DNA of 64,000 bases from Alphaproteobacteria bacterium (GCA_021413445.1 JAIOQI010000043.1:10594-74593); one strand, 5' to 3'. Positions 11,479 through 31,904 are shown, numbered from the stretch's first letter. The notes: generated by a model not told the origin, from the sequence alone. A program made the numbers and translations.

Positions 11479-11479
11479 C

Positions 11480-12172
11480 ATGAAAGAATCCGTCATGGCA
11501 AAAGCCCCGAAACAACTCGATGACGTCGGCGTGCTGGCCTACCTGAAAGCAAATCCGGATTTTTTCAACGCGCATCCGGATGCGCTCCCCGGCGCGCCGC
11601 AGGGCAAGGGTGTGGTCGATTTCCAGCAGCGCATGCTGGAAAAGCTGAAAAGCGACAAATCCAACGCCCAGCGCCTGCAAAAGGAACTGGTCGAGAACGT
11701 CCGTGCCAACATGGACAACCTGAACCGCATCCAGATGGCGGTGCTGGTGATCCTGGAAGCGGAAAGCTTCGAGGAATTCGTCGAGACCGTCACCCAGGAC
11801 CTGCCGATGCTGCTGGATGTCGATACCGTCAACCTGGTCATCGAATCCACTTCCAAGGAAATCCCCTTCATCAACCAGGCCGGCATCCGCTTAGCCAAGC
11901 CGGGCACGGTGAAGAAATGGCTCAGCACCGGCGACGCCCTGCTGCAGAACAACATCAACGGCGCGGAAGAAATTTTCGGCCCCGGCGCCGGGCTGGTCAA
12001 AAGCCACGCGCTGGTGCGGCTGGAGATCAGCCAGAGCACACCCGCCGGCATCATCGCCTTCGGCTCGCGCGACCCGGAGGCCTTCCAGCCGCATCAGGCC
12101 GTGGACCAGATCGGCTTCCTGGCGCCAGTGGTAGAACGCTGTTTCCGCATATGGCTGGGCCTTCAGGTATAG
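11480..12172 (+). CDS. DUF484 (YigA-like) protein
   Basis: VLAYLKANPDFF, VVDFQ, GSRDPEAF; usual position upstream of xerC. Confidence 0.85.
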   Translation: MKESVMAKAPKQLDDVGVLAYLKANPDFFNAHPDALPGAPQGKGVVDFQQRMLEKLKSDKSNAQRLQKELVENVRANMDNLNRIQMAVLVILEAESFEEFVETVTQDLPMLLDVDTVNLVIESTSKEIPFINQAGIRLAKPGTVKKWLSTGDALLQNNINGAEEIFGPGAGLVKSHALVRLEISQSTPAGIIAFGSRDPEAFQPHQAVDQIGFLAPVVERCFRIWLGLQV

Positions 12173-13113
12173 CCGCCGCCCCTCCCTCCGCCGCCGCCGA
12201 TCTGGCGGCGCGTTTCGACGCCTGGTTGCGTTTCCTGCAACATGAAAAGCATTTCTCGCGCCATACGCTGCGCGCCTACAGCAAGGACATTCTGTATTTT
12301 TTCGACTTCCTGACGCAGCACCTCGGCAAGCCGCCTTCCCTCAACGACCTCGGCGCCGCCTCCCTGCGCGATTTCAGGAGCTGGCTGACCCAGCGCGTGG
12401 TCGATGGCGTCAGCAACGCGACCCGCGCGCGCCAGTTGTCCAGCATCCGCAGCTTTCTCAAGTGGCTCGACAAACAGGGCATCCTGCACAATGCCGCCAT
12501 CGGCTGCGTGCGGACGCCGAAACTGCCGAAAAAACTGCCGCGCAGCCTGCCGGTCAAACAGGCAAAAATTTTAACGGACAACATGGATGGCATTCACAAT
12601 CAGGAGCCGTGGATCGCCCACCGCGACCGGGCGCTGTTCACCCTGCTTTACGGCTGCGGCCTGCGCATCGACGAAGCGCTGCAGCTCAACTACGGCACCC
12701 GCCCGCAGAACGGCGAATTGCGCGTGATGGGCAAGGGCCGCAGGGAACGGCTGGTTCCCGTCCTCGACGTCGTCCAGAAGATGCTCGACGACTATATCGC
12801 CCACTGCCCCATCCCTTTTGAAAAAGATACGCCGCTGTTCCTCGGCAGCCGCGGCGGGCGGCTGAATCAGGGCGTCGCGCAACGGCAGCTGCGCATTCTC
12901 AGGAAGACCCTCGGCCTGCCGGAAAGCCTGACGCCGCATGCGCTGCGCCACAGCTTCGCCACGCATATCCTGGCGAACGGCGCCAACCTGCGCGTGATTC
13001 AGGAATTGCTCGGCCACGCCTCGCTGCGCAGCACCCAGCGCTACACCGACTTTGACGACGCGCAGCTCATGGCGATTTACATGAAGTCACATCCGCGCGC
13101 CCGCAGCGACTGA
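12151..13113 (+). CDS. xerC: Tyrosine recombinase XerC
   Basis: RDRALFTLLYGCGLRIDE, GKGRRER, HALRHSFATH, QELLGH, TQRYT; DUF484-xerC synteny; start taken at ATG 12151. Confidence 0.92.
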   Translation: MAGPSGIAAAPPSAAADLAARFDAWLRFLQHEKHFSRHTLRAYSKDILYFFDFLTQHLGKPPSLNDLGAASLRDFRSWLTQRVVDGVSNATRARQLSSIRSFLKWLDKQGILHNAAIGCVRTPKLPKKLPRSLPVKQAKILTDNMDGIHNQEPWIAHRDRALFTLLYGCGLRIDEALQLNYGTRPQNGELRVMGKGRRERLVPVLDVVQKMLDDYIAHCPIPFEKDTPLFLGSRGGRLNQGVAQRQLRILRKTLGLPESLTPHALRHSFATHILANGANLRVIQELLGHASLRSTQRYTDFDDAQLMAIYMKSHPRARSD

Positions 13114-14897: not shown

Positions 14898-15708
14898 TTT
14901 TCACTCCTGCGTCAAGCTTCAAGTCCAGCACCACCGGCGCGTGGTCGCTGGGCCTTTCCCAGCCGCGCACGTCGCGCAATATCTGGTGTTTTTTCAAGGC
15001 CGGCTTCAGGTCCTTGGTCACCCAGATATGGTCGAGGCGGCGGCCCTTGTCCGCCCTATCCCAGTCTTCGGCGCGGTAGCTCCACCATGAATAGAGCTTT
15101 TCCTCCCCGGGGACGAAATGGCGGATGGCATCGACCCAGCCGGCGGAGCGGTAGAATTTTTCGAACTTCTCGATTTCCATCGGCGTGTGCGACACCACAT
15201 TCCGCATCTTCTCATGGTCCCAGACATCATTCTCCAGCGGCGCGATATTCAGGTCGCCGACCACGATCATCGAATTTTTAGCTGATCTTTCCTCGGCGAA
15301 CCACTGCGTCAGCTCATCGACAAAAGCGAGCTTGTGCCGGAATTTATCGGACTCCATATCCGGCTCATAGCCGCCGGCGGGAATATAAATATTGTGCAGC
15401 TCGAAGGTTTTTCCCGGCGCCTTGACCTTGACCGAGATGTGGCGGCAGTCGTTTTTTCCGCAGCGCTGGTACACCTCCGGCTCGGCCAGCGGCAGTTTTG
15501 AGAACACCGCCACGCCGTTATAGCCCTTCATGCCGGCAAAGTGATAATGCGCAAAGCCTTTGGCCACCAGCGCCTCCACCGGAAAAAATTCGTCCGGGGT
15601 CTTGGTCTCCTGCAGGCAAAAAACGTCCGGCTTCTGCGCATCGATCAGCTGTGTCAGCAGGTCGAGCCGCAGGCGGACAGAATTGATGTTCCAGGTGATA
15701 AGGCGCAT
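14887..15708 (-). CDS. xth: Exodeoxyribonuclease III
   Basis: ITWNINSVR, CLQETK, GYNGVA, GDLNIAP, YSWWSYR, RLDHIW, SDHAPV. Confidence 0.95.
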   Translation of the reverse strand: MRLITWNINSVRLRLDLLTQLIDAQKPDVFCLQETKTPDEFFPVEALVAKGFAHYHFAGMKGYNGVAVFSKLPLAEPEVYQRCGKNDCRHISVKVKAPGKTFELHNIYIPAGGYEPDMESDKFRHKLAFVDELTQWFAEERSAKNSMIVVGDLNIAPLENDVWDHEKMRNVVSHTPMEIEKFEKFYRSAGWVDAIRHFVPGEEKLYSWWSYRAEDWDRADKGRRLDHIWVTKDLKPALKKHQILRDVRGWERPSDHAPVVLDLKLDAGVKNDR

Positions 15709-15830
15709 GCCTCTTTCCATACCCCTTATCTCCATGATTATAAAGATAAAATTATTGGTATTCCGTCGTTGACATATTCTCCTTGTTTACGTACCATAAC
15801 CTCGGAATCACATAATACCTGGAGAAACAC

Positions 15831-16448
15831 ATGAGAAAACTTCCCTCCCTTATCCTGCAATTCGCTGCCGCCGCCACGCTGGCTTTCTCCGGTTGCACGG
15901 TTTTCCCCAAGACCTCAAAGCTGCATAACGTCAAGATCGGCTCCGTGCAGGAAAACAGCGATGTTTTTGTCGGCGTCGATGACCTAGCCGCGCGCCTCAC
16001 CAAGATAAAAAAGGGCATGAGCGACACGGCGGTCTATGACACGCTCGGCGTTTCCCCAAAACGGTTTTATACCATCCCCGACGACCAGAAGATGAAATAC
16101 GTCGATGGCCCGCAGGTCGCGCAGCCGCACACCGCCGAAGAGCAGGACAAGATCAAGGCCCGCGCCGACAGCTACACGGTCCGTGAGCTGGTTTACAGGA
16201 GCGTCACCACAAAAGCCGGCGTCAACCTGGTCCTGACCAAGGAAACCCAGACCACCGGCTACGACCTCAGGCTGCAGGTCACCTTCAAGGACGGCATTCT
16301 CGACAAGGTCACCCTTGCCGGCATCCAGGAAATCAACCGCTACAACAAGGAGACGATTATCTCCCTGATCAGCACCGCCGCCCGAGGCGGCGGCGCGGAC
16401 GCCCTGCAGCTCATCATCAAGAACTCGGTCAAGGTTCCCGGGCTCTGA
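15831..16448 (+). CDS. Putative lipoprotein (SmpA/BamE-like motif)
   Basis: Lipobox-like LAFSGC; IKKGMSDTAVYDTLG; GGAG RBS; TTGACA-N17-TACCAT promoter at 15769-15797. Confidence 0.7.
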   Translation: MRKLPSLILQFAAAATLAFSGCTVFPKTSKLHNVKIGSVQENSDVFVGVDDLAARLTKIKKGMSDTAVYDTLGVSPKRFYTIPDDQKMKYVDGPQVAQPHTAEEQDKIKARADSYTVRELVYRSVTTKAGVNLVLTKETQTTGYDLRLQVTFKDGILDKVTLAGIQEINRYNKETIISLISTAARGGGADALQLIIKNSVKVPGL

Positions 16449-16474
16449 CGTCTTGGCCGTTTACACCCTGAAAT

Positions 16475-16507
16475 AAAAAGGCCCGTGAAATTCACTGGCC
16501 TTTTTTT
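16475..16507. terminator. Bidirectional intrinsic terminator
   Basis: AAAAAGGCCCGTGAAATTCACTGGCCTTTTTTT between convergent genes. Confidence 0.8.
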
Positions 16508-16521
16508 ATCTCTTATCGCCG

Positions 16522-17124
16522 TTACGGCTGCGGCGGCTTAGGGCCCTTTTTTGCAGGGTTGTCCAGCGCCTCCAGCGCCGCGCGGGATTTCACCAGCGCC
16601 TCGCCGAAAATCTTGTCGAGGCCGGGATTCTGCCCCTTCACGGTGGCAAAACTCTGTTCGAGGCCTTTCAGGATATTCCAGCGCACCTGATGATGCTTGT
16701 CTATTTTGGCGCGGCCGATCAGCTGGTCGTTCATGGTGGAAAGCCCCTCGACCAGGAACAGGCGGGTCGCATCAGCCGGCATGCCGTTGTCGAATTTCAC
16801 GGCGCTCATGCCGGACAGGTACTTCATCAGTTCCACGGTCCGCTCGCCAAACAGGTTGCGGGATACGTCCATGGCATTTTGGTCGGCGAGCACATTGCCT
16901 TTGGAAGGGCCCATCAGGGTCAGCGTGATTAATTCTTCCGAGCAATCCGAACAGTTGGCGATCAGCAGTTTTGCGGCGGCGATCGGCTGGTGCAGCATGA
17001 AGCTCTCGATGCGCTCCGGTCCAAACATGCTCATGTTGCGGGTGAGCCAGCCGTAGCACATGTTGAGGGACTTTTCCCACTTGGGGTTCGCGGGCAGTCC
17101 TGATTTTGAATAATCGAAAGGCAT
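16522..17124 (-). CDS. Hypothetical protein, degenerate HD/Mesh1-like fold
   Basis: AAGGAG RBS; LHQPIAAAKLL, SEELITLTLMGP, FGERTVELM spacing resembles the SpoT-type HD domain without the HD residues. Confidence 0.65.
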   Translation of the reverse strand: MPFDYSKSGLPANPKWEKSLNMCYGWLTRNMSMFGPERIESFMLHQPIAAAKLLIANCSDCSEELITLTLMGPSKGNVLADQNAMDVSRNLFGERTVELMKYLSGMSAVKFDNGMPADATRLFLVEGLSTMNDQLIGRAKIDKHHQVRWNILKGLEQSFATVKGQNPGLDKIFGEALVKSRAALEALDNPAKKGPKPPQP

Positions 17125-17160
17125 TTTTTTCTCCTTAGGGGTTATACTTGGGGTTAAAGG

Positions 17161-17484
17161 TTAAAAGGGCAGTTCCAGACCGGCGGGAAGACCCATTTCG
17201 GTCATGATTTTCTGGGTTTCATCTCCCATTAGTTTTTCCACCTTGCGGCGGGCGTCATTGACGGCGGCAATCACCATGTCTTCCAGCACTTCCGCTTCCT
17301 GCGGATTGATGAGGGACGGGGCGATCTTCAGGGTCTTGAGCTCGAAGCGGCCGTTAAGGCAGCAGCGGACCAGGCCGCCGCCCGCCTCGCCGGTCACTTC
17401 CGTCTGCTTGACCCGCGCCTGCAGCTCCTGCATCTTCTGCTTCATCTGCGAGGCTTTTTGCATCATCTGCACGATATTGGCCAT
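17161..17484 (-). CDS. ybaB: Nucleoid-associated protein YbaB/EbfC
   Basis: GEAGGGLV, LEDMVIAAVNDA; directly downstream of dnaX. Confidence 0.93.
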   Translation of the reverse strand: MANIVQMMQKASQMKQKMQELQARVKQTEVTGEAGGGLVRCCLNGRFELKTLKIAPSLINPQEAEVLEDMVIAAVNDARRKVEKLMGDETQKIMTEMGLPAGLELPF

Positions 17485-17487
17485 GGC

Positions 17488-19143
17488 TTATTTCCTCTCG
17501 CGAATGTCGATGATTTTGGCGCCGGGAAAAGATTTCAGCGCCTCGGCCACCACGGGATGCGCCTTGATGTCGTTCATCACTGTCTGCTGCTGTCCCTGCT
17601 TCACCTCGGCCAAGGTCGGCTCGCCGGCTTCGCGCGACAGGCTGACCACCCAGCGCTGACCCGTCCATTCGCCAAGCTTGTTGGAGATTTGCCCGGCGAG
17701 GTTGTGCGGCGCGCCCTCTTTGAGGCGGAGGGACAGATGCCCCTGCTCGAACTTCACCAGATGGACGAAATTCATCAGCTGCGATTGCAGGATCGCTTCG
17801 CGGCGCTGGCCGAACAGGGCCACCACATCGTTAAAACCGTTCACACAGGCCTGGACGCCGGCATCGAGATCGCCCAGCGCGGCAGGCGCCGCCGCCGTGC
17901 GCGACATGATCGTCGGCCGGGAAGACCCGCCCCCGGGCGACCCCAGCGGCCCCCCGCCCATGCTCACCGTGCCGCCGTCTTTCAATTGTTTCAGGACATC
18001 CCCCGGCGTCGGCTGGTCCGACACATACATCAGGCGGATCATCAGCATTTCCAGCGCCAACTGCGGGTGCGGCGCCTGCTGGACTTCCTGCGCGCCCTTG
18101 AGCAGCATCTGCCAGGCGCGGGTCAGCACCGGAATCGGCAAGCCCTGCGCCAGCTCCAGGCCGCGCACGCGCTCGGCCTCCGGCAGGGCCATATCCTTCG
18201 CCAGTTCCGGCGCCACCTTGACCTTGGTCAGGTAATGGGTGAGATCGAGCAGGTCCTGCAGCACCATCGCGGCATCGGCGCCGCCTTTATAAAGGCTGTC
18301 GAGCAACGCCAGCGCGGGCTGGCTGCTCCCCTTCATCACCGCCTCGAACAAATCGAGCGTGACGGAGCGGTCCACCAGCCCCAGCATGTCGCTGACCTGC
18401 TGCGCAGTGATTTTTTTCGGCTCGCGGGAAATCGCCTGGTCGAGCAGGCTGAGGCCGTCCCGCGCCGAACCGTCGGCGGCGCGCGCGATCATGGCGACGG
18501 CGGAGGCATCCGCCGCCACTTTTTCCAGCGCCAGCAATTCGGTGAAATATTTCTCCAGCACACCGGAATCGATGCGGCGCAGGTCAAAGCGCTGGCAGCG
18601 CGAGAGGATGGTCACCGGCACCTTGCGGATCTCGGTGGTGGCGAAAACGAACTTCACATGCTCCGGCGGCTCTTCCAGCGTCTTGAGCAGCGCGGCGAAG
18701 GCCGACTTGGACAGCATGTGCACTTCGTCAAGGACGAAGATCTTGTAGCGGCCGGCCACCGGCGCATATTGCACGGAATCGATCAGGGTGCTGATTCCCT
18801 CGACGCTGGTGTTCGAGGCGGCATCCATCTCCAGCACGTCGATGTTGCGGTCCTCGGCGATGGCGCGGCATTGTTCGCATTGGCCGCAAGGCGTGATGGT
18901 CGGGCCTTTTTCGCAATTGAGCGCCCGGGCGATGATCCGCGCCGTGGTGGTCTTGCCCACCCCGCGCACGCCGGTCAGCATGAAGGCATGGGCGATGCGC
19001 CCGGACTGGATGGCATTGGTCAGGGTGCGCACCAGCGCTTCCTGACCCTTGAGCTCGGAGAAATTCTGCGGACGGTACTTCCGCGCCAGAACGCGGTATT
19101 CGGCGGAAACGGCTTCAGGTGCGGATGACGCTTTTTTGGCCAC
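17488..19143 (-). CDS. dnaX: DNA polymerase III subunit gamma/tau
   Basis: YRVLARKYRPQ, GVRGVGKTT, CGQCEQC, DEVHMLS, SRCQRF; GTG start at 19143 chosen because the longer ORF runs through the SRP RNA. Confidence 0.96.
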   Translation of the reverse strand: MAKKASSAPEAVSAEYRVLARKYRPQNFSELKGQEALVRTLTNAIQSGRIAHAFMLTGVRGVGKTTTARIIARALNCEKGPTITPCGQCEQCRAIAEDRNIDVLEMDAASNTSVEGISTLIDSVQYAPVAGRYKIFVLDEVHMLSKSAFAALLKTLEEPPEHVKFVFATTEIRKVPVTILSRCQRFDLRRIDSGVLEKYFTELLALEKVAADASAVAMIARAADGSARDGLSLLDQAISREPKKITAQQVSDMLGLVDRSVTLDLFEAVMKGSSQPALALLDSLYKGGADAAMVLQDLLDLTHYLTKVKVAPELAKDMALPEAERVRGLELAQGLPIPVLTRAWQMLLKGAQEVQQAPHPQLALEMLMIRLMYVSDQPTPGDVLKQLKDGGTVSMGGGPLGSPGGGSSRPTIMSRTAAAPAALGDLDAGVQACVNGFNDVVALFGQRREAILQSQLMNFVHLVKFEQGHLSLRLKEGAPHNLAGQISNKLGEWTGQRWVVSLSREAGEPTLAEVKQGQQQTVMNDIKAHPVVAEALKSFPGAKIIDIRERK

Positions 19144-19168
19144 GAAATGATCCTGTCCCGGTGAAAAA

Positions 19169-19269
19169 GGTGGAAGGCTGGAAACGACCCGGATGTAAAA
19201 CTCGTTACGGTTGCTGCCTCTCGGCCCTGGCCGGATTGGCGAGACATTCGCCCGCCCCAGCCTTCCGCC
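19169..19269 (-). ncRNA. ffs: Small SRP RNA (4.5S)
   Basis: Terminal stem GGAAGGCTGG/CCAGCCTTCC; helix-8 CAGG-GCC-GAGA-GGC-AGCA; upstream of dnaX. Confidence 0.9.
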
Positions 19270-19408
19270 CAGGATATTGTCAGATTCGCACTCCGCTGTC
19301 CACTTCAGAGTTAACAGCATGAAATCATGGGCAATTATAAAGGGCTAACCTTCGAATCAAGACGCTTGAAAACCCGGACAATTTACCCTATTCTGCGCCC
19401 TAGCTTTT

Positions 19409-19484
19409 GCTGTTGTAGCTCAGTTGGTAGAGCACCGCATTCGTAATGCGGGGGTCGTAGGTTCGAATCCTATCAACAGCACCA
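19409..19484 (+). tRNA. tRNA-Thr(CGT)
   Basis: Cloverleaf, anticodon arm CCGCA-TTCGTAA-TGCGG, GTTCGAATC, CCA end. Confidence 0.96.
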
Positions 19485-19570
19485 TTTCCCTTAGTTTGTG
19501 AGTGTTTCCAGATGGATGGATGCGCTTCGCTAGCAAAGCTTTGTGTTTTGTTACAGCGTGGAGCACCTCT

Positions 19571-19603
19571 AAAAAAAAAGCACCCGGTTTTATCCGGGTG
19601 CTT
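19571..19603 (-). terminator. Intrinsic terminator
   Basis: AAGCACCCGG/CCGGGTGCTT hairpin with poly-U on the minus strand, after the OM barrel gene. Confidence 0.8.
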
Positions 19604-19625
19604 CAAGAGATTTTCCGCGATATTT

Positions 19626-20447
19626 TTAATCGCCAGAGTCAGTAGAGCCGAACTTATAGCTCAACTGAATGCCATAGGCGCTGTTCGGCGCTGCATCCGT
19701 AAAGCCCGTCGCGCCGTAAACCTGCGTAGCCCAGCTGTCTGACAGATCATAAGTGATGAAAGCCGTCGCCTGGCTGAAGTTTTTGCTGGTTGCCGTGGCG
19801 CCCTGACGGAAGTCATACATCGCGCCCGCCGTCAAATCCGGCGTAAACTTGTAGCCGCCGCCGGCGGAATATTTCCACACGTCGTCAAGCCGGAAGCGCG
19901 CTGAAGACCCGTTGAATTTACGCCCGACGTTAGCGGTGACAAAGGCGTCGCCGATCGGATGCGTCAAACCGAACTGCAGGGTGTAATCGGTATTCCCGGT
20001 GCCGAGGTTTTTGTCTTCATCCGCCGTCGGAAGCTTTACCTTCCCGGTCAGATCGGCGGCGGTGCCTTGTGTGTTCAGTTTGTACTTATAAGCCAGGCTG
20101 GCAATGATATCGCCGAGACCGCTCTCCGTGCCGACAGCGCCGGCCGCGCCCAAGGGGTCTCCGCCGTCACCACCGACAACGACGCCGGGGCCGGTGATTT
20201 TCAGGTAAGGGATGGTCAGCTTTGCCGTCCAGTCGTCGTATTTGGCCTTTGCCGTCACCGGAACATAGGTGATCTTCGTATCATTAACCTGGCCGTAATC
20301 GCCTATACTGTAGTTATAGCTGGTCGAAAGGGTCACTTTCATCTTGTCCTGGCTATCGGGTGTCTCAGCCTGCGCAGCCGGCGCGGCCAAGAGAGAAAAA
20401 CCGCAAACAGTCGCCAGCAATGTGAGAGTTAGTTTTGTGTTATTCAT
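19626..20447 (-). CDS. Outer-membrane beta-barrel protein
   Basis: Signal peptide (AQA-E), YNYSIGDYG, GLGDI, KLPTAD...LGTG.TDY, alternating beta strands, near-terminal YKF. Confidence 0.8.
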   Translation of the reverse strand: MNNTKLTLTLLATVCGFSLLAAPAAQAETPDSQDKMKVTLSTSYNYSIGDYGQVNDTKITYVPVTAKAKYDDWTAKLTIPYLKITGPGVVVGGDGGDPLGAAGAVGTESGLGDIIASLAYKYKLNTQGTAADLTGKVKLPTADEDKNLGTGNTDYTLQFGLTHPIGDAFVTANVGRKFNGSSARFRLDDVWKYSAGGGYKFTPDLTAGAMYDFRQGATATSKNFSQATAFITYDLSDSWATQVYGATGFTDAAPNSAYGIQLSYKFGSTDSGD

Positions 20448-20509
20448 TATTCTGTGTCTCCTGTTGTTTTTTTTATTGCACATGTTTTATCACTACCATA
20501 TTCAAGAAA

Positions 20510-20540
20510 GAGAGGGTAGGAGAAAAATCCCTACCCTCTC
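20510..20540 (-). terminator. Intrinsic terminator/hairpin between secreted repeat gene and barrel gene
   Basis: GAGAGGGTAGG/CCTACCCTCTC 11-bp stem followed by TTTCTT on the minus strand. Confidence 0.65.
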
Positions 20541-20569
20541 AGAGGTTATTAGTCCTGTTTTTATTTTTT

Positions 20570-21112
20570 TTAGTCATCGATCTCCGGCAACTCGACCTCA
20601 GGAGTTTCCACTTCCGGCGTCTCTATTTCCGGAGTTTCGATCTCTGGCGTCTCAATCTCAGGAGTTTCTATTTCCGGAGTTTCAACCTCTGGCGTCTCGA
20701 TCTCGGGGGTCTCTACTTCTGGAAGTTCATTCTCAATTTCCGGAGTCTCTATTTCCGGCGCTTCATTTTCAATTTCCAGAGCCTCTATTTCCGGCGCCTC
20801 GTTCTCGACCTCGAGGGCTTCTACTTCCGGCGATTCATTTTCTGTTTCGATTGCTTCCGTTTCGGGCGCCTCATTCTCAACCTCCGTAGCATCCTGCCCG
20901 CTATCGCCTAAATCAGCGGCATCCTTCGCGCTATCCTGTATTTCTACTGTGCTCCCATCTTTAGTGGTTGTACCGCCGGAAGACAGAACAGCTCCCGATT
21001 CAGCTACCGTCCCTCCCTGGAATAAATCCAGTATCCCCGCTTTGGCGGGTGGGATCCCTATCATCAAGGCAACGGCGCTGACTGCCGCCAATAATATGAT
21101 TTTATTTTTCAT
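20570..21112 (-). CDS. Secreted acidic protein with pentapeptide repeat tail
   Basis: AAGGAG RBS, signal peptide (AKA-G), C-terminal (PE[IV]ET)n and E[VI]ENEAPE repeats. Confidence 0.85.
   Translation of the reverse strand: MKNKIILLAAVSAVALMIGIPPAKAGILDLFQGGTVAESGAVLSSGGTTTKDGSTVEIQDSAKDAADLGDSGQDATEVENEAPETEAIETENESPEVEALEVENEAPEIEALEIENEAPEIETPEIENELPEVETPEIETPEVETPEIETPEIETPEIETPEIETPEVETPEVELPEIDD
20576..20885 (-). repeat. Degenerate 15-bp coding tandem repeat (PE[IV]ET)
   Basis: Roughly 20 pentapeptide units with synonymous variation. Confidence 0.85.
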
Positions 21113-21196
21113 GACGTTTCTCCTTTGGTTGTTTTACCCTGCCGCCGCTGCGTAATAACCCGAATCGCGAGATATTACACCCTATACCTCCATAGT

Positions 21197-21217
21197 ACGT
21201 GGGAAATTTTACCACGT
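21197..21217. promoter_or_regulatory. Palindromic putative operator 1
   Basis: ACGTGGGAAATTTTACCACGT near-perfect inverted repeat in the divergent intergenic region. Confidence 0.6.
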
Positions 21218-21311
21218 CAATAACTATTTTTTCTGCTAGTAAAATTGCTAACATATTGTTTTAATTGTATAGTTAAAATTAAACTCACATTTATTAACGA
21301 TAAATAACAGT

Positions 21312-21338
21312 AATAAATGTGATATTTTCACATTTATT
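21312..21338. promoter_or_regulatory. Palindromic putative operator 2
   Basis: AATAAATGTGA-TATTT-TCACATTTATT with perfect 11-bp arms. Confidence 0.65.
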
Positions 21339-21404
21339 GTGATAGAATGAAAGTATATGGCCTGAAGAAATTTCGCCATAAAGAATTTAAAGAGCTGGAA
21401 ACAA

Positions 21405-22232
21405 ATGACGACACCGAACAAAACCCTGCTTCAGTCCCTCAGGCGCATCCTGCGGCCTTTGGTGCGGCTGTTTATCAGGAATGGCGTCACCCTTCAAATG
21501 ACGTCCGACCTGTTCAAGGAATTGTACGTCAACGCAGCCGAAGAAAGCCTGCAAAAAGAAACGGGCAAAGCGACGGACAGCCACATCAGCCTGATGACCG
21601 GCGTGCACAGAAAAGACGTCAAGAAATACCGCAACCTCCGCCTTGATATGGGCGAAGCCCCTCCCCACGTCTCCGTCGGGGCGGAATTGCTGGGCAAATG
21701 GCTGGGCCTTCCGGAATTCCTCGACCCGCAGGGAAACCCCGTCCCCCTTCCCTATCAGAACAAGGAAGATCCCGAACGGAGTTTCTGCGCGCTGGCGGAA
21801 AGCGTTTCGAAGGATATCCGCCCGCGCGCCATGCTGGATGAATTCATCCGCCAGGGCATCGCCGTTCACGATCCCCTCAACAACACGGTCGCCCTGCAAC
21901 AGGACGCCTTTGTGCCCAGGGACGGAATCGAGGAGAAGCTGTATTACTTCGGCCGCAACAGCGGCGACCATATGGAAGCCTCCGTGCATAACCTCTTGGG
22001 ACAGCAACATCCCTTCTTTGACCGCTCCGTTTATTATGATGAGCTCACTGAGGAATCCGCGCAGGAATTGCAAAAACTGGCGAATGACAGCGGCATGAAG
22101 ACGCTACGTACCATCAATCGCAAGGCGCTCGAGCTGTCGGAACGGGATAAAAACAAACCGGGCGCGCTGTGGCGGATCAATTTCGGCGCCTTTTTCTTTT
22201 CTTCAGGGGAAAATGACAAAAATGAAAAATAG
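21405..22232 (+). CDS. DUF6502-like protein (possible HTH regulator)
   Basis: LRPLVRLFIRNGV, TDSHISLMTGVHRKDV, SKDIRPRAMLDE, DHMEASVHNL, FFDRSVYYDELT. Confidence 0.8.
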   Translation: MTTPNKTLLQSLRRILRPLVRLFIRNGVTLQMTSDLFKELYVNAAEESLQKETGKATDSHISLMTGVHRKDVKKYRNLRLDMGEAPPHVSVGAELLGKWLGLPEFLDPQGNPVPLPYQNKEDPERSFCALAESVSKDIRPRAMLDEFIRQGIAVHDPLNNTVALQQDAFVPRDGIEEKLYYFGRNSGDHMEASVHNLLGQQHPFFDRSVYYDELTEESAQELQKLANDSGMKTLRTINRKALELSERDKNKPGALWRINFGAFFFSSGENDKNEK

Positions 22233-23535
22233 GCGGGAACAGGATATTCCGGGCATTTTTACAACACCTGCGGCAGCAATGCTGTTTGCCCTGCTTCTTG
22301 CCTGCACCCTGATTCCATCACCGGCAGTAGCGGCAAGAATGTGCCAAACCCCGGACGGTTATGTTTTTCAAAATAAAAAAGACCCCTCGCCGTCAAATGA
22401 AAAGACAAAAGGCGGCAAGGGAATGGGGGGCACCGGCATCCAAAGCGCCGACAAAGGCATCGGCGGCACCGGCATCAAGTTCGCTGACAGGGGTATCGGC
22501 GGCACCGGCATTTCCGCGCACGGCAGCATCGGCGTTTACGGCCGCATCACCGGCTTCGGCAGCGTCTGCGTGAACGGCATGGAGATATTCTACGGCAAGA
22601 ACACCCACGTCCTGGATAACAGCAAGCAGACCTCCTCCAGCGAACTGAAGATCGGCCAGATGGTCTCCGTCATCGCGGACAGCGTCAACAACCGGTCCGT
22701 CGCGCGGCAAATCGAGGTGCAGAGCATCCTGAAGGGCCCAGTTGACAGCGTCGATGCGCAAAAGGGCGCCCTGCATGTCATGGGCCAGCTCGTCCAGATG
22801 AATAATCCGGAGGGCGTCAAGTCCATTCACGCCGGCGACTTTGTCGCGGTGGGTGGCTTCAGGGACGCTGCCGGCCACGTCATTGCAAGCTCGGTTGAAA
22901 AAATCCCGCCGCAGGAAGAACAGAGGCATTCCTCCCCTGACGTCCGCTTCTCCAGCGACGTCAGGCACATCTCCATCCAGGGGTATGCGGAAATGACCGG
23001 CGATAAAGGAGAACTGCGGCTGAACGATCGCACGACCGTCGAAATTTCGGATAATGCCGAAATCAAGGGCGGAAAACTGGAAGATATTTCCAACGGCGAC
23101 AGAGTGATCGTTTTTGGCGATGTCGGAGAGAACGGCAAGCTCAGCGCCGACACGATCTTCATCGAAAAGTCGGACATTCCCACGCAGGTTATCGAAGGCG
23201 ACCTTGAGTCAAGAGGCCACCCTGGCGGCAGCCTTGAGCAGGAAAAAGGGCATCATGCAAATGAAGATCTCAAAGAAAATGAAAAAGATGGCGGCCATGA
23301 ACATTCGGGCTCTGGAGAAGGCCACGACAGGCCCGAGACGGAATCTCCTGGGATAGACTCCCCTGAAACGGAAAGCCCCGAAGTCGAATCTCCTGAGGTA
23401 GAAACTCCTGAAGTAGAAACTCCTGAAGTAGAAACCCCTGAAGTCGAAACTCCTGAGGTAGAAACTCCTGAGGTAGAAACTCCGGAAGTAGAAACTCCTG
23501 AAGTTGAGCCGCCTGAACTTCCGGAAGGCGGCTAG
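22213..23535 (+). CDS. DUF5666-like exported protein with GIGGTG repeats and PEVET tail
   Basis: Signal/TM segment, three G[IM]GGTGI motifs, GRITGFGSVCVNG, LKIGQMVSV, C-terminal (PEVET)n. Confidence 0.8.
   Translation: MTKMKNRREQDIPGIFTTPAAAMLFALLLACTLIPSPAVAARMCQTPDGYVFQNKKDPSPSNEKTKGGKGMGGTGIQSADKGIGGTGIKFADRGIGGTGISAHGSIGVYGRITGFGSVCVNGMEIFYGKNTHVLDNSKQTSSSELKIGQMVSVIADSVNNRSVARQIEVQSILKGPVDSVDAQKGALHVMGQLVQMNNPEGVKSIHAGDFVAVGGFRDAAGHVIASSVEKIPPQEEQRHSSPDVRFSSDVRHISIQGYAEMTGDKGELRLNDRTTVEISDNAEIKGGKLEDISNGDRVIVFGDVGENGKLSADTIFIEKSDIPTQVIEGDLESRGHPGGSLEQEKGHHANEDLKENEKDGGHEHSGSGEGHDRPETESPGIDSPETESPEVESPEVETPEVETPEVETPEVETPEVETPEVETPEVETPEVEPPELPEGG
23332..23526 (+). repeat. 15-bp coding tandem repeat (GAAACTCCTGAAGTA; PEVET)
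   Basis: About 12-13 pentapeptide units, several near-identical at DNA level. Confidence 0.85.
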
Positions 23536-23591
23536 AAAAAGCCTCTCATATTACGAACACCCAGACCACAAGCAAAAATTTATACGGCTAT

Positions 23592-24713
23592 CTAAATCCG
23601 CTGGCACCACGCCAATACCTCGGCTCTGTTTCCCCTGAAAACGATGCGGTTTTCGTTCAGGGATAAGTGGTAGTCGTACATGGGGTCGTAATAACGGGTC
23701 AGCAGGTCGCCAATCCACTGCCGGTGCAGGGATTCATCGGCGGTGGCCTGCTGAACGCCCAGCGCATTCTCCATCGCCGCCAAAATATCCTTATACCGCT
23801 CGGAGCCAAGCCGTTTGCGGATGCGGAACAGGCTGTCGCGCAGGAAATCCGAGAACCTGGCAAAGCCCTGGTCGCCATAGGCCGCCTGGTGCTCCGCGAG
23901 CATATCCGTCACATAATCTTTCAGCACGGCGGAGATCCGGTTTTCCAGGCTCTCTTCCAGCACGACGGTCGGCCACTCCTTCATTTTGGCGAGCAGGTTC
24001 AGCGGCAGGGCGCAACGGCCCACCACACGGCTTTCATCCTCGATGAACAGCGTTTTTTCAGTGCTATGGGCCAGCTTCAGCAGCCTGACCGCAAGGGCGT
24101 TCTCAAAGTCGATCTGGCTGGGCTGCGGAGTTATTCTCCTGCCGAAGCTCGAGCCGCGATGCCGGGCGATCCCTTCCAGATCGACCGCATGGGGCAGTTG
24201 ATGAATAAGGAGGGTTTTGCCGATGCCGGTGCGCCCGCTGATGATGACAAAATTCCGCCGCGAGACGATGTCGTCAAGCGCATCAATCAGGAAACGCCGC
24301 AGGGCCTTGTAGCCGCCTTTGACAAGCGGATAATGGATGTTTGCATCCCTGAGCCATTCCTGCACGATATGGGAGCGCATGCCGCCCCGGAAGCAAAAGA
24401 GATAGCCTGCGGGATTTTGCCGCGCAAAAGCCTGCCATTGCCGGAGGCGTTCGGCCTTGACCTCGCCGCTGACCAGTTGATGCCCGAGGCTGATCGCGGC
24501 CTCCGCTCCCTCTTTTTTATAAATTGTGCCAATGGCCTGACGTTCTTCATCATTCAGCAGGGGGAGATTGACGGCCGAGGGAAATGACCCCCGGCTGAAT
24601 TCCACCGGCGCCCGCACATCCAGCAGCGGCACATCATTCAGGAATAAACGGAGGAAATCATCCGCGTCATTTCCGGTTTTGCGCTCAGAGAGCATGATCC
24701 CACGACCTCCCAT
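23592..24713 (-). CDS. mnmH: tRNA 2-selenouridine synthase
   Basis: DVRAPVEF, CFRGGMRS rhodanese motif, GRTGIGKT, DLEGIARHRGSSFG, QPSQIDFEN, YYDPMY. Confidence 0.93.
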   Translation of the reverse strand: MGGRGIMLSERKTGNDADDFLRLFLNDVPLLDVRAPVEFSRGSFPSAVNLPLLNDEERQAIGTIYKKEGAEAAISLGHQLVSGEVKAERLRQWQAFARQNPAGYLFCFRGGMRSHIVQEWLRDANIHYPLVKGGYKALRRFLIDALDDIVSRRNFVIISGRTGIGKTLLIHQLPHAVDLEGIARHRGSSFGRRITPQPSQIDFENALAVRLLKLAHSTEKTLFIEDESRVVGRCALPLNLLAKMKEWPTVVLEESLENRISAVLKDYVTDMLAEHQAAYGDQGFARFSDFLRDSLFRIRKRLGSERYKDILAAMENALGVQQATADESLHRQWIGDLLTRYYDPMYDYHLSLNENRIVFRGNRAEVLAWCQRI

Positions 24714-24956
24714 GAAATACCCTACAGCACTGTCCTTCCCCGCAACAGCCTTAATTTTTCCTATCCAAAATCGGGCATTCCCGGCATCTGCATCATAAAA
24801 TAACGCACAAAATAACGTCTATTTCGTCCAGTCCAAGAGTTTTATTGACGGCCCTGGCGCCAGCGTCTATAAAACACGGCAAGACTCTGCTCCCGGCTAA
24901 AATTAAGTTGGGTCATAGAAGCGCCTTTAATATTTTCCACTATGGACATTATCACC

Positions 24957-25271
24957 ATGACCTGGATCCACTGCCCTTCACCGATCGTCGCCGATGTCAT
25001 CCGTTGGCATGAGCCGATATGGGCCGCGCCGACCAAGAAGCGCGGCAAGCCCGATCAGATCGGCGAACAGGTTGTTACAGCTGAAGTAAAGGCTCTTGGC
25101 GACTTTTTGCAGCTGCAGGTCCGGACGGTCGAGGTTCTCTCCCTTGATGACGGGGCAAAGCCCCCGCCCGGCGTAAAGGTTGGCGACAGTCTCCGCCGCA
25201 AGAAATCCACGATCGACCGCGGCGACTGCCATCGCCTGCTTTGGAGCGACGAGAGCGCCCGCGCGCCCTGA
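24957..25271 (+). CDS. Hypothetical protein
   Basis: ORF with coding-like composition (ADVIRWHEPIW...RLLWSDESAR); start uncertain (24942 or 24957). Confidence 0.6.
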   Translation: MTWIHCPSPIVADVIRWHEPIWAAPTKKRGKPDQIGEQVVTAEVKALGDFLQLQVRTVEVLSLDDGAKPPPGVKVGDSLRRKKSTIDRGDCHRLLWSDESARAP

Positions 25272-25308
25272 GCATCCGGAAGGCGGCTGGAAAAAGCCTC
25301 TCATATTT

Positions 25309-25794
25309 TTATGGGTGGATGGCCTTGTGGATAGTATCCAGGCACACCGGCTTCAGAATATATCCGCTGACCTGCAACTGACGGGCTTCCTCAACGCGTT
25401 TACTTGAGGTGTCGCCGGTAATCACGATCATCGGTATGTTTTGCGTCATGGGATGCGCTTTCAAATCCCGCAAAATTTCCAGGCCATCGACGCCCGGCAG
25501 ATGGATATCCATCAGGATCAACAGCCGCATCTTGCGCGCCGCGCCGCTGCTATAGTACCCTTCGTTGACAAAATACGTCACGAGGTCAGCGCCTTTTTCA
25601 AAGCAGTGCACGTTATAGACATAGGGGGACTTTTCGAGGGTATTCAGAATCTGTTCCCGGTCGTCAATATTATCTTCGATCAAAAAAACGGTATATTGGT
25701 CCCGCTTCCGTCTTTTCTTTTCCGACACCTGCCTGTGCAGATAAGCCTTCTGCTGCGCGCCCTGGCTCGTATTTTTTCGAGTAGTGGAAAACAT
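25309..25794 (-). CDS. Single-domain response regulator
   Basis: LIEDN, LMDIHLPGVDG, ITG, YILKP; GAGGAGG RBS. Confidence 0.88.
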   Translation of the reverse strand: MFSTTRKNTSQGAQQKAYLHRQVSEKKRRKRDQYTVFLIEDNIDDREQILNTLEKSPYVYNVHCFEKGADLVTYFVNEGYYSSGAARKMRLLILMDIHLPGVDGLEILRDLKAHPMTQNIPMIVITGDTSSKRVEEARQLQVSGYILKPVCLDTIHKAIHP

Positions 25795-25923
25795 CTTCCC
25801 CTCCTCTTTTTTAAAACAGTCCCGCCGGATCCAAAATATCCGGCAACAACTTTGCCTTGTTAAAAATATCCTAAAATTTTTGGTCCCATCTTCTATTATA
25901 CCCCGCAGCCTGTGAGTAAATGT

Positions 25924-25938
25924 TTAAAAATACATTAA
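25924..25938. promoter_or_regulatory. CtrA-type box
   Basis: TTAA-AAATACA-TTAA (TTAA-N7-TTAA); a near match also at 25860-25874. Confidence 0.45.
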
Positions 25939-25977
25939 ATTATCTGTAACCCCTTACAAAAACTGGCTAAAAATAAA

Positions 25978-26439
25978 TTATTCGGGGGTATAGCCGTTTT
26001 TAGGCAGCAGGGCCGTTTCAAACCAGTAATTCTTGATGCTTTCAGCGACGCGTATCATGTCCTGAAAACTGCTCGGTTTTTGTATGTAGGCATTGGCGCC
26101 CATCTGGTAACAGCCCTGGACATCCCGTTCATTGGATGAGGTCGTGAAGATGACGACGGGTATGCGCTTCAGCGTGGCGTCCTCCTTGATCGCCTGAAGG
26201 GTCTGGCGGCCGTCCAGCCCCGGCATATTGAGATCCAGCAAAATAAGCCCCAGCAACGGTTTTTTATTGTCGGAAGGTCCTGCGCGCCTGAGAAAATCCA
26301 GCACTTCCTGACCCGACTTGCACCAGAAGATCGGGTTGGGGAGATGGACCTTTTTAAAAGCGCGTGTTATCGCTTCATAATCTTCTTCGTTATCCTCCAC
26401 GATCAGGAGGATTTGCGATTCTGATGGACGATCACTCAT
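25978..26439 (-). CDS. Single-domain response regulator (Rcp1-like)
   Basis: VEDNEED, LLDLNMPGLDG, IPVVIFTTS, GANAYIQKP; start overlaps the kinase stop. Confidence 0.92.
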   Translation of the reverse strand: MSDRPSESQILLIVEDNEEDYEAITRAFKKVHLPNPIFWCKSGQEVLDFLRRAGPSDNKKPLLGLILLDLNMPGLDGRQTLQAIKEDATLKRIPVVIFTTSSNERDVQGCYQMGANAYIQKPSSFQDMIRVAESIKNYWFETALLPKNGYTPE

Positions 26440-28492
26440 GTACGCCGCCTTTGGGGTGAAGGATAAAATAAAAGGTCGTGCCTTTTCCCGGCGCCGATTC
26501 AACCCAGATGCGCCCGCCATGCCTTTCGACGATTTTCTTGACGAAGCTCAGCCCCATGCCGGTGCCCGTCTCCCTTTCGCCGTCCGGCGTGGCGATCCTC
26601 CTGAAAATGCGGAAGATCTCCTGATGATGCCTGTTTTCAATGCCGATACCGTTATCCCTGACATAGAACACGCCGTGCTCTTGCCCCTGGGGCGTCTCCA
26701 CGGCGTCAAGGAACCCCACCTCCACCAGCGGCTTCGGCTTGTCATTATATTTCACCGCATTGGTGATAAGGTTGCGAAACACTTCCGTGATCTTGGTTTT
26801 GTCGCAAACAATCTTCGGCAGCGGCTGCGGCATGACGATGCGCGCTTTGTGCTCACTGAGGAAAGTTTCCATCATTTGCTGGACGTCCCTGACGAGGATA
26901 TTGGGGTCGACTTCCTGCACGGCCATCTCCGTGCGTCCCAGCCCCGAGAAATGGAGAAGATCGTTGACAAGGCGCTCCATGCGCTGGCTCAGCTGCGTCA
27001 GGCGGGTCAGCCGGCGCAGCCCCTCAGGGCCCAGCTTGTCCTTGAAATCCTCCATCAGGAACCCGGATTGGATATTCAGCCCGCGGAGCGGCTCTTTCAG
27101 GTCGTGGGACGCGATATGGGCGAAGTCTTCGAGCTCCTGGTTGCTGCGCTCAAGCTCTTTGGTGTATTTCAGGAGCTGCGCCTCGGTTTTCTTGAGGTCC
27201 GTGATATCCCGGATAACCCCCACCAGGAATGGCTCCCCCTCCTCGTTCCGGAAGGCCACTTTTTTGGTGGACAAGATATGCCGCTCGCCCCTGAAGTCGG
27301 TGAAGGATTCCTCGTTGACATCCACCTCGCCGGAATCAAAGACCTTGTTGTCCTTCTCCCAGAAAACATCGGCTTCTTCCTTGGGGAAAAACTCATAGTC
27401 GCTTTTGCCGAGAAACTTCTCCGGCGGCCCGTGCATGAGGTCCCAGAAAGATTTGTTGCCGTCGATCCAGCGGTGCTGCTTGTCTTTCATGAAGATCGGG
27501 TCGGGGATATTGTCCAGCATGTTTTTCAGGTACTGGTGCGTCGCCTGCAGTTTCTTTTCGGTTTCCCCGCGTTCAGCGATGATGGCGCCCAGGAACAGGC
27601 CCGTCGCCGCCACGATCATCATGAAGATTTGCAGCACCAGCAGGTTCTCCCCCAACAGGGCGCTGCCGAAAGAGCCGGCGCCGCCCGTCAGGGCCCAGAT
27701 GGCCAGGGCCGAAGCGATGAACGTCACCAGCGTCGTGCCGCACTGCCCGAAACGCAGCGCCGCCCAGATGGTGAAAGGAAAGATGATGAATTTCCATTCG
27801 CTGTGCGCTTCACGCAGCCCCATAAAAATGCCGGCATAGGCGGCCGCCAGCGCCCCCAGCAGAAGCGGCCCCTCCAGCAGCATGCCCGGTCTCAGGCGGG
27901 GGCAGGGCCTGTTCAGCCACACCAGCAGCAGCGGCGCCACAATCAGGGCGCCCGCCGCATCGCCCAGCCACCAGTCCCGCCAGAGCGGAAGAAAAAGCGC
28001 CCATTTCTGGACGCCGCCGAGACACAGGCTTGTCACGCCGAGAGTGGCGCCGATCATCGTGCTCAGGACCGCGGAAAACAGGATCAGGCCCAGCACGTCC
28101 CGCTGGCGGTTCAGGTCGTTCCTGAACCCGACGAATCGCTGCAGGGCCCAGGCGCCGAAGAGGGCTTCGAGAGTATTGCCGACGCCGATCCCCAGCGCCG
28201 TCAGGACGGGTTCGGCTGCGGTGACGTTGGCGAGAAAAGCGCCTAAAAAAATAGCGGGCAGGACACGGTATCCGGACAACAGCAAGGCCGCCAGCGCGAT
28301 GCCCGTCGGCGGCCAGGCCAGCGTGACCTGTTTGGCCGTCAGGGCCAGCGACAATCCCAGCTTGGCTGAGATGATATAAAGACCCGCCACGATGAAGAGA
28401 ATAACGGCAAGCCTGAGCTTGCCCGTTGATGCCGTCAGGCGAAGATCCAGCGGCTTCTCAAAAGGATCATGCGGGGGAAGAAGGGGGAGCAC
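26432..28492 (-). CDS. MASE1-PAS sensor histidine kinase
   Basis: WPPTGIALA and WWLGD (MASE1), PAS (IPDPIFMKD), ASHDLKEPLR H-box, NAVKY, DNGIG, GTGMGL. Confidence 0.92.
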   Translation of the reverse strand: MLPLLPPHDPFEKPLDLRLTASTGKLRLAVILFIVAGLYIISAKLGLSLALTAKQVTLAWPPTGIALAALLLSGYRVLPAIFLGAFLANVTAAEPVLTALGIGVGNTLEALFGAWALQRFVGFRNDLNRQRDVLGLILFSAVLSTMIGATLGVTSLCLGGVQKWALFLPLWRDWWLGDAAGALIVAPLLLVWLNRPCPRLRPGMLLEGPLLLGALAAAYAGIFMGLREAHSEWKFIIFPFTIWAALRFGQCGTTLVTFIASALAIWALTGGAGSFGSALLGENLLVLQIFMMIVAATGLFLGAIIAERGETEKKLQATHQYLKNMLDNIPDPIFMKDKQHRWIDGNKSFWDLMHGPPEKFLGKSDYEFFPKEEADVFWEKDNKVFDSGEVDVNEESFTDFRGERHILSTKKVAFRNEEGEPFLVGVIRDITDLKKTEAQLLKYTKELERSNQELEDFAHIASHDLKEPLRGLNIQSGFLMEDFKDKLGPEGLRRLTRLTQLSQRMERLVNDLLHFSGLGRTEMAVQEVDPNILVRDVQQMMETFLSEHKARIVMPQPLPKIVCDKTKITEVFRNLITNAVKYNDKPKPLVEVGFLDAVETPQGQEHGVFYVRDNGIGIENRHHQEIFRIFRRIATPDGERETGTGMGLSFVKKIVERHGGRIWVESAPGKGTTFYFILHPKGGVHE

Positions 28493-28670
28493 TTTAGTTC
28501 CTTAAATTGGAATTTATAAAAAACAGTCCGGTTGTATATTAGCTAAAAAAATCATTTTTTATTAACAAATATAGGAAGGCCCGTCAAAATAATGTATGGA
28601 TGCGGCGGCACTATGGCAAAAATCGCCTCCATGGCAGGTTTACTCAAGTGTATTTATAGATATTCTTCTG

Positions 28671-31790: not shown

Positions 31791-31904
31791 GAGACTTCCT
31801 GAAGAAAGATGAAGCTTTAACTCACATAACCCGAATCTTTTAATTCTAACATTAGCTTAAGGAAAATAAAAAGCGCTTACTATGTAAATTATCTCTTAAC
31901 TTTA

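Follow-up and report, generated by a model that had tools for sequence, protein, structure and literature searches.

Introduction

What might four neighbouring genes for an outer-membrane barrel, a small secreted acidic protein, a DUF6502 protein and a DUF5666 protein do together? They occupy positions 19626-23535 of a stretch of 64,000 nucleotides from Alphaproteobacteria bacterium (GCA_021413445.1 JAIOQI010000043.1:10594-74593), which we call the window and to which all coordinates refer. The initial annotation of this DNA knew of no assigned function for the gene set, and we likewise found no published account of the whole locus in the literature searched. It proposed a self-regulated sensing or uptake system made of a regulator, a periplasmic partner, an outer-membrane channel and an acidic, possibly cation-binding, secreted protein.

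We conclude that the module exists and is conserved, and that the literature searched does not describe it. Our tentative reading of the whole, held with somewhat less than even confidence, is a self-repressed protein-export unit whose pore would take tailed proteins in tail first. Gene content, protein folds, a DNA motif and charge covariation are direct results of the comparison, and from them we infer every interaction, binding and export included. The four genes are:

19626-20447, minus strand: barrel gene, ATG at 20447 with AGGAG in front
20570-21112, minus strand: gene for a small secreted acidic protein of 180 aa, with a signal peptide and an (E-T-P-E-I/V)n C-terminal tail
21405-22232, plus strand: DUF6502 gene (Pfam DUF6502), a predicted repressor
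22213-23535, plus strand: DUF5666 partner gene, overlapping the stop of the DUF6502 gene

An open reading frame (ORF) check of the window finds all four genes where the initial annotation had placed them. The two rightward genes overlap as it described (the partner starts at 22213, before the DUF6502 end at 22232), and the intergenic region it called AT-rich (21113-21404, 292 bp) has 32.5% GC against 57% for the window. The Pfam match to DUF6502 (PF20112, E 8e-28) scores 97.4 bits against a cut-off of 27, and three DUF5666 (PF18914) stretches in the partner are above the Pfam cut-off (E 4e-17, 62.7 bits); the barrel has a marginal match to DUF3187 (25.4 bits, cut-off 24). NCBIfam has no model above cut-off for any of the four genes, and single-sequence PDB searches gave nothing significant. 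The module is single-copy and has no paralogues in this 2.1-Mb genome (87% complete). Three features went unmentioned in the initial annotation: an ETPE(V/I) repeat in the partner, two intergenic palindromes, and a hairpin between the small-protein and barrel genes.

Locus sets

Three sets of loci were compared. Set 1 comprises the window, six relatives (duplicate L014 dropped) and the best 80 GTDB loci, giving 87 loci with the closest DUF6502 relatives. Set 2 comprises 19 class-sample and 80 metagenome loci, from which five duplicates and short flanks were dropped. Set 3 consists of barrel loci, mostly regulator-free, in each of which the partner was chosen by its position; excluded from it were two barrels with gaps, one truncated barrel, five loci lacking a usable neighbour and one partner that turned up only later. 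The tail motif was defined by eye on set 1, and barrel-less loci with less than 2.5 kb of flank were dropped. Lumen-facing positions were assigned without 3D coordinates, from the alternation of hydropathy along predicted strands.

Recurrence of the genes

The barrel, which the initial annotation grouped with DUF6502 and DUF5666 genes, recurs beside them elsewhere. Its family is present in 61 of the 87 set 1 loci (48 of the 62 whose flanks both reach 3 kb or more), the DUF5666 partner is present in 60, and barrel, partner and an operator-proximal ORF with a signal peptide occur together in 26. The barrel gene is convergent in 30 loci, co-directional in 19 and divergent in 12, so its linkage survives rearrangement. 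No catabolic or transport genes appear among the recurrent neighbour families of the 87 loci.

DUF6502 is patchily distributed, being found in 8 of 61 relatives (this genome included), in none of 11 same-genus genomes and in 20 of 401 genomes of the class; the closest named relative is an uncultured Micavibrio. In a random alphaproteobacterial sample a strong barrel match was found in only 3 of the 19 other DUF6502 genomes, by a search that scored at most six candidates per genome, and 8 of the 11 strong barrel matches fell in genomes without DUF6502. A phylum sample yielded 18 barrel loci. DUF6502 is absent within about 5 kb in 17 of them; an exported protein adjoins the barrel in 16, and the tail motif is present in 9, some with the ETPEV repeat. 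Regulator-free loci of the class sample have the tail motif in 3 of 8 cases. Since barrels occur without DUF6502 and DUF6502 without barrels, we regard the locus as two pairs brought together, one of regulator and partner and the other of barrel and cargo. The class and phylum samples separate these pairs, and the idea of the four genes as an indivisible unit is rejected. The self-regulated module first proposed, with its regulator, exported partner, channel and secreted protein, is otherwise supported.

The cultured strain Aromatoleum toluolicum T (L076) has the regulator, partner, barrel and operator-proximal tailed protein, and Rhizobium johnstonii 3841 and Azospirillum lipoferum 4B carry the regulator-partner pair. 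On plasmid pRL12 of R. johnstonii 3841 (L333) additional flgE/flgK/hook-associated genes come before the pair, and a single operator was found, behind the partner gene. A sensor histidine kinase gene adjoins DUF6502 in five loci (L022, L024, L027, L035 and L044).

The barrel and the tailed proteins

The AlphaFold2 (AF2) model of the window barrel has 12 strands (pLDDT 85, pTM 0.81). Two solved folds tie as its closest: FapF (best Foldseek match, E 2e-12; VIA Z 23.8, root-mean-square deviation (rmsd) 2.4, 221 residues aligned; best sequence-profile match, E 2e-6) and the COG4313 channel Pput2725 (4rl8; VIA Z 24.5, rmsd 2.3). The window barrel has no match to PF13557; 19 of 48 relatives have one, as do 37-55% of the members of Atlas clusters. 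FapF and Pput2725 are both plugged by their own N-terminus (PMC5557850; PMC4493636). With heuristic cleavage sites, about 8 residues precede strand 1 in the window barrel and a median of 3 in its family (at most 10 in 50 of 58), a segment so short that the lumen would have no plug in cis. The net charge assigned to the window barrel's lumen is +8. In some barrels (L328:4203, L194:3197, L254:6259 and L330:4622) the loop after strand 3 is enlarged by Gly/Asp/Ser-rich insertions, the longest of about 200 aa.

Both exported proteins of the window end in repeats. The small protein, 34% D+E in its mature part, has its tail at about 20573-20735. The partner runs from a signal peptide and a cysteine through three GxGGTG units (the Gly-rich GIGGTG-type repeats that the initial annotation had seen), three DUF5666 domains and a His/acid-rich linker with 13 His to an (ETPEV)n tail. 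Its parts and the hairpins beside the leftward genes are:

22416-22511, plus strand: three GxGGTG units, partner N-terminus
about 22540-23157, plus strand: three DUF5666 domains (Pfam)
23326-23532, plus strand: (ETPEV)n tail of the partner (sequence repeat)
20510-20540, minus strand: terminator-like hairpin between the small-protein and barrel genes, 12 pairs, 7 of them G-C
19577-19604, minus strand: terminator-like hairpin 3′ of the barrel gene, 11 pairs and a T run (consensus match only)

The first of these hairpins would yield more cargo than pore. Only 2 of the 702 signal-peptide-like ORFs in the genome have at least four tail motifs, and these are the small protein and the partner. Between loci the tails vary widely (ETPEV, VDVP, ERPEK, ERVDRSGS, poly-D, K/R-rich), with net charges from -21 to +13. 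Most of the small proteins are of low complexity, and their N-termini are unrelated. Tail acidity is not conserved across loci, and general cation binding is rejected; the acidic, possibly cation-binding character first ascribed to the secreted protein is not supported as a general role, the charge instead following that of the inferred barrel lumen. Divergent from a barrel of the module's family, a 910-aa exported, very His/Glu-rich repetitive protein with an ERP-repeat tail (L248:7177, plus strand, genome G135) is a candidate metal-storing cargo; the genome search found no DUF6502 in G135. In L079, L254 and L330, secreted GRGADD-type repeat proteins without an xP[ED] motif adjoin the operator or the barrel.

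The tied folds invite an explanation close to that of the initial annotation, namely small-molecule or cation uptake of the COG4313 type, with the acidic protein or DUF5666 binding a ligand that DUF6502 senses directly, like SphR/SphA. It would account for Pput2725 being the best VIA match and for PF13557 in relatives and Atlas clusters, and it suits the histidines of the partner linker, the weak partner-profile match to the haem chaperone CcmE (E 0.02-0.06; the only other matches were to low-complexity sequence) and the operators that in some loci precede cytochrome c genes. It sits badly, however, with a tail charge that ranges so widely and mirrors the lumen, with the lack of recurrent catabolic or transport neighbours, and with the absence of the lumen-inserted N-terminus of COG4313 channels (PMC4493636). 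We hold this explanation to be improbable, and uptake to be a less likely role for the barrel than the handling of a polypeptide tail.

Covariation of tail and lumen

The tail motif goes with the barrel, being present in 57 of 61 set 1 loci with a barrel against 1 of 8 without, and in 27 of 37 against 2 of 19 in set 2. Within a locus the operator-proximal secreted protein and the partner have similar tails: over 24 dereplicated loci of 33 the dipeptide cosine is 0.369, against 0.145±0.030 when permuted. The folded region of the partner, taken as control, gives 0.197 against 0.176.

Tail charge mirrors lumen charge. In set 1 (n=61) the correlation of lumen charge with the charge of the last 30 and 50 residues is rho -0.74 and -0.55, and it stays at -0.69 after removal of the three most acidic loci. 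The independent set 2 gives rho -0.84 for the last 30 residues (n=31); lipid-facing charge (0.10), regulator charge (0.13) and GC (-0.12) do not follow the tail there. Set 3 gives rho -0.77 (n=17, six rows being from one family), and the pooled value is -0.80 (n=109). On a barrel tree from which the lumen columns had been excluded, contrasts give r -0.62 (60 negative, 22 positive), with -0.02 for lipid-facing residues, and acidic tails need at least nine changes on the tree. The most correlated lumen columns include K67, K76, K200 and D234, which by standard barrel topology would lie at the periplasmic ends of strands. A FapF-type fold, the lack of a plug and the mirrored charges together make tail-first entry into the pore likely, and from the covariation we think it probable that tails enter the lumen from the periplasm.

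Much of this would be expected even if nothing were released. The tails could dock in the barrel as a plug or anchor in trans, so that the proteins stay tethered and gate the pore or sense the envelope state, under the same repressor and operator, much as RcsF occupies the lumens of outer-membrane proteins (OMPs) (PMC4942254). All of the tail-lumen covariation fits such docking equally well, as does a barrel without a plug of its own whose small gene is often directly upstream, where FapF has linker and plug in cis. Partners that are folded or lipidated (22 are of lipobox type) and the 910-aa protein of L248, which is helical, would moreover be hard to export whole. The small proteins, however, look like cargo with a common signal, low-complexity and unrelated at their N-termini; the hairpin between cargo and pore genes suggests excess cargo, and in L253 two tailed proteins stand in front of one barrel. 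Docking without release seems to us rather unlikely, though more probable than uptake.

A further alternative dispenses with contact altogether: the envelope genes would be co-regulated or merely co-located, tails would have spread by gene conversion or drift, and charge would reflect ancestry or habitat. The two window tails are 70-80% complementary as DNA, a strict paired test is not significant (see below), and the cognate tail beats GC-matched non-cognate tails in only 149 of 220 comparisons. Yet the longest DNA stretch common to the two tails is 14 nt and their codon use differs, on which grounds recent gene conversion is rejected, and the same tails occur where no partner exists to convert from. 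Habitat should give charges of the same sign, as seen between lumen and DUF5666 region (+0.36 in set 1), and neither the set 2 controls nor the repeated changes to acidic tails on the tree suit this alternative. We consider this alternative very doubtful.

Predicted operator and regulator

Palindromic expectation maximization on 85 regions upstream of DUF6502 gave, de novo, the 21-bp motif AcGTGGGAAaatTTCCCACgT, whose half-sites have the spacing GGG-N7-CCC. Leave-one-out scores reach at least 14 bits in 77 of the 85 loci against none of 1700 shuffles, and among set 2 loci, outside the training data, the palindrome is present in 81 of 87 against none of 1740 shuffles. The window has two sites:

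21197-21217, either strand: operator O1, 29.1 bits, the best site in the genome with a matrix built without the window locus
21220-21215 (-35) and 21197-21192 (-10), minus strand: leftward sigma70-like promoter, its spacer filled by O1
21315-21335, either strand: operator O2, 17.2 bits, second-best site in the genome
21319-21348, plus strand: rightward extended -10 promoter-like site, its -35 covered by O2

O1 and O2 are thus the two best sites in the genome, and no further operator above 16.4 bits was found in it at its 87% completeness. The promoter scan found 7 sites where 4.2±1.9 are expected, which makes the promoter call weak by itself. The position of the operators over promoter-like hexamers of both directions points to repression. 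Given the conservation of the palindrome, DUF6502 very probably acts as a repressor through it.

In most cases the gene behind the operator encodes a small exported low-complexity protein; in some loci it encodes a cytochrome c or a lipoprotein. The cytochromes are multi-haem clusters in L050, L066, L083 and L088 and small mono-haem c-type proteins in L048, L084 and L098, two of which have acidic tails. In L030, L039 and L068, near 11000-12700, the operator lies between the barrel and a divergent gene of a TPR-like outer-membrane family (9 loci) that may be Slam/DUF560-like. On a Methylocystis plasmid (L335) two operators precede a different, smaller outer-membrane barrel.

The initial annotation had noted an HTH-like segment, TDSHISLMTGVHRKDVKKYR, in the DUF6502 protein. 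In the AF2 model (pLDDT 83.5) it forms helices 58-65 and 69-76, a helix-turn-helix (HTH) that matches the HTHs of TetR and sigma proteins, and it is followed by a winged helix (about 90-165) and two long C-terminal helices. A structure prediction had been the suggested check on this protein, and its top fold match is HetR, both in Foldseek and in VIA (48,161 chains; 204-219 residues aligned, with Z 7.7, 209 residues and rmsd 11.3 in one comparison and Z 8.1 in another). The order of a helical N-terminus with HTH, a winged helix and a C-terminal helix/strand region appears to be the order of DNA-binding domain, flap and hood in HetR, the only whole-length fold match; other listed matches cover single domains. 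The hood strands are not formed in the DUF6502 monomer model. The DUF6502 profile has no match in PDB at E 1, and the Atlas gave no usable non-DUF6502 match for the regulator. DUF6502 may resemble DUF4423/TIGR02147, though no such Pfam match appeared. DUF6502 likely works like HetR, yet we do not class it as HetR.

The partner N-terminus

The gene after DUF6502 encodes GxGGTG in 79 of 86 and 64 of 73 loci, against 3 of 890 background ORFs. Pseudomonadales-type partners without DUF5666 keep only GxGGTG and the tail. Because GxGGTG is kept whatever the rest of the partner, the motif appears to go with the regulator and the tail with the barrel. Most partners have, by inspection, a cleavable or lipoprotein signal peptide, which makes a transmembrane anchor of the anti-sigma type unlikely. 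In L024 and L027 there are tandem DUF5666 lipoproteins with one GxGGTG each.

HetR is released from DNA by a hexapeptide bound at its hood (PMC4649674), and PatX inhibits HetR only after export by Sec and cleavage outside the cytosol (PMC12756182); the latter is a precedent for a periplasmic peptide precursor. By analogy, peptide signalling through GxGGTG is a lead, possible though held with clear doubt. The genome has three genes for family-5 solute-binding proteins (SBP_bac_5).

Genomic setting

The tRNA gene that the initial annotation had placed upstream of the module is present, and marks one edge of a variable region:

19409-19484, plus strand: tRNA-Thr(CGT), left edge of a variable region of ~16 kb containing the module

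This ~16-kb stretch is absent from the same-genus genome G009, where DNA matching window positions 35520-35993 comes ~1.5 kb after the tRNA. A repeat of the tRNA 3′ end was not found elsewhere in the genome, so that no classical att-bounded island is shown. Rfam finds only tRNA and signal recognition particle (SRP) RNA in 15000-30000. The SRP RNA gene (ffs) lies at 19168-19267 on the minus strand, upstream of dnaX; a long dnaX ORF call from 19320 overruns it. Elsewhere in the variable region, 23592-33626 holds mnmH (tRNA 2-selenouridine synthase), two stand-alone response regulators with a MASE1-PAS histidine kinase, and a two-partner secretion pair (TPS domain with MBG_2 repeats; ShlB-type transporter).

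Proposed mechanism

The export reading has four steps. DUF6502 would very likely bind the two palindromes that overlie the divergent promoters and keep both operons repressed. The repetitive C-terminal tails of the small protein and the partner would then, with good probability, enter the plug-less barrel from the periplasm. The small low-complexity protein, unfolded, might next pass out, and the partner stall on its folded DUF5666 domains as a captive substrate, a step on which we stay just short of even confidence. In the last and weakest step, which we hold as a doubtful possibility, the GxGGTG loop would be clipped in the periplasm and re-imported, freeing the HetR-like repressor as PatX does HetR; the state of the pore would then set the expression of pore and cargo.

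Several observations weigh against this reading. As to the tails, the cognate one ranked in the top three for 13 of the 24 loci, about half having no close match; the set 1 correlation weakens over the last 80 residues (rho -0.23, p 0.08); and the independent-pairs test, which is underpowered, is not significant, with 2.2 pairs the same way, 0.1 opposite and 3.7 without difference. Barrel loops also correlate with last-30 tail charge (-0.48), and the lumen assignment from sequence alternation leaves the parity of one strand ambiguous. In model, the barrel is equally close to COG4313 uptake channels. Seven of the 18 phylum-sample loci belong to one family, and one Azospirillum partner carries RPDGP repeats where the 5-kb flanks contain no annotated barrel gene. 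Convergent barrels carry their own operator in only 5 of 29 cases, so the barrel is often outside the regulon. On the regulator side, the HetR match is modest (Foldseek E about 0.01; VIA Z 7.0-8.1, rmsd 11-12), and a Z below 8 may reflect a common arrangement only; HetR Pfam families are absent among the matches of 59 DUF6502 members at E 0.1, and both operator (GGG-N7-CCC) and peptide (GxGGTG) differ from those of HetR. A second cysteine is present in 50 partners, all with an upstream cysteine, and in none of the 22 lipobox-type partners; paired cysteines suggest a disulfide-closed, tethered loop rather than a free peptide. There is no gap between the last GxGGTG and the first strand of DUF5666, and the role of the motif may in part be structural.

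A more ambitious form joins export to trans-envelope signalling. The plug-less pore would export unfolded proteins by a charge-matched tail, and the two-ended partner would couple pore state to transcription, its tail competing for the pore and its GxGGTG repeats yielding a PatX-like peptide that lifts the repressor, with no TonB, sigma factor or kinase involved. We think this version unlikely as a whole. If it is true, HetR/PatX would be a specialised derivative of an envelope-monitoring module that is found widely.

Significance and comparison with known systems

The export reading, which we retain, gives testable roles to DUF6502, DUF5666 and the barrel at the edge of DUF3187/PF13557, for which three the literature searched gave no functional paper. 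It gave no paper at all on DUF6502. In the papers examined DUF5666 is a table entry only; in Dissulfuribacter disproportionating thiosulfate, a DUF5666 protein ranks in the 20 most abundant (PMC13490349). Among the papers listed for DUF3187 and for PF13557/FapF-like proteins none was seen to describe such a barrel-tail pairing, and a search for HetR-like proteins in proteobacteria gave only unrelated work. The charge rule linking tail and lumen leads one to expect that two genes suffice as a minimal export or anchoring device, the C-terminal signal being portable. The operator offers an immediate reporter, and cultured hosts carry the genes.

FapF, the channel of the Pseudomonas Fap functional-amyloid system (5o65/5o67/5o68), exports unfolded polypeptides (PMC5557850) and is the only solved relative found here known to pass polypeptides. 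It shares with the module barrel the 12-stranded fold, a twisted loop (PTA/GTG in the module barrel, two PTG motifs in FapF) and exported low-complexity proteins encoded next door. The coiled coil and helical plug of FapF, both needed for FapC secretion (PMC5557850), are however missing from the N-terminus of the module barrel; fapA-E and the C39 protease are absent from the window and from the recurrent neighbours of the 87 loci; and the module cargo is Pro/charge-rich, with a tail charge that covaries with the lumen, rather than an N/Q-rich amyloid.

COG4313/PF13557 channels (Pput2725, SphA, TcpY) have the same fold, with PF13557 matched by the barrel relatives counted above, and SphA has an adjacent regulator. 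They differ from the module barrel in the N-terminus of ~14 residues folded into the lumen (PMC4493636), which it lacks; its lumen is polar and charged, and its neighbours are exported repeat proteins, not catabolic enzymes. With RcsF, whose polypeptide segment occupies an OMP lumen in trans and relays envelope information inward (PMC4942254), the module would share, if its tails dock, a lumen segment supplied in trans. Here, in contrast, the module encodes a dedicated barrel of its own but no IgaA or phosphorelay, and the segment sits at the C-terminus.

HetR (4j00, 4hri, 4izz, 4yrv, 3qod) appears to share with DUF6502 the order of HTH, flap and hood along the whole chain, and it too has a palindromic GGG...CCC site at its own promoter (PMC4649674). 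HetR-PatS/PatX/HetN share with the module a linked protein that is exported by Sec and has a short Gly-rich motif behind its signal peptide (PMC12756182). Yet DUF6502 has 9-12% identity to HetR and no match to its Pfam families, and its site has N7 where that of HetR has N5 (GGG-N5-CCC; PMC4649674). In place of RG(S/T)GR the motif here is GxGGTG, repeated and embedded in a protein of 400-600 aa. DUF6502 occurs in unicellular Proteobacteria and other phyla, and the placement of its site points to repression. The parts of the module resemble FapF and HetR/PatX without being members of either, and a HetR-like regulator with an exported Gly-motif precursor outside the cyanobacteria bears on the origin of the HetR/PatX patterning switch.

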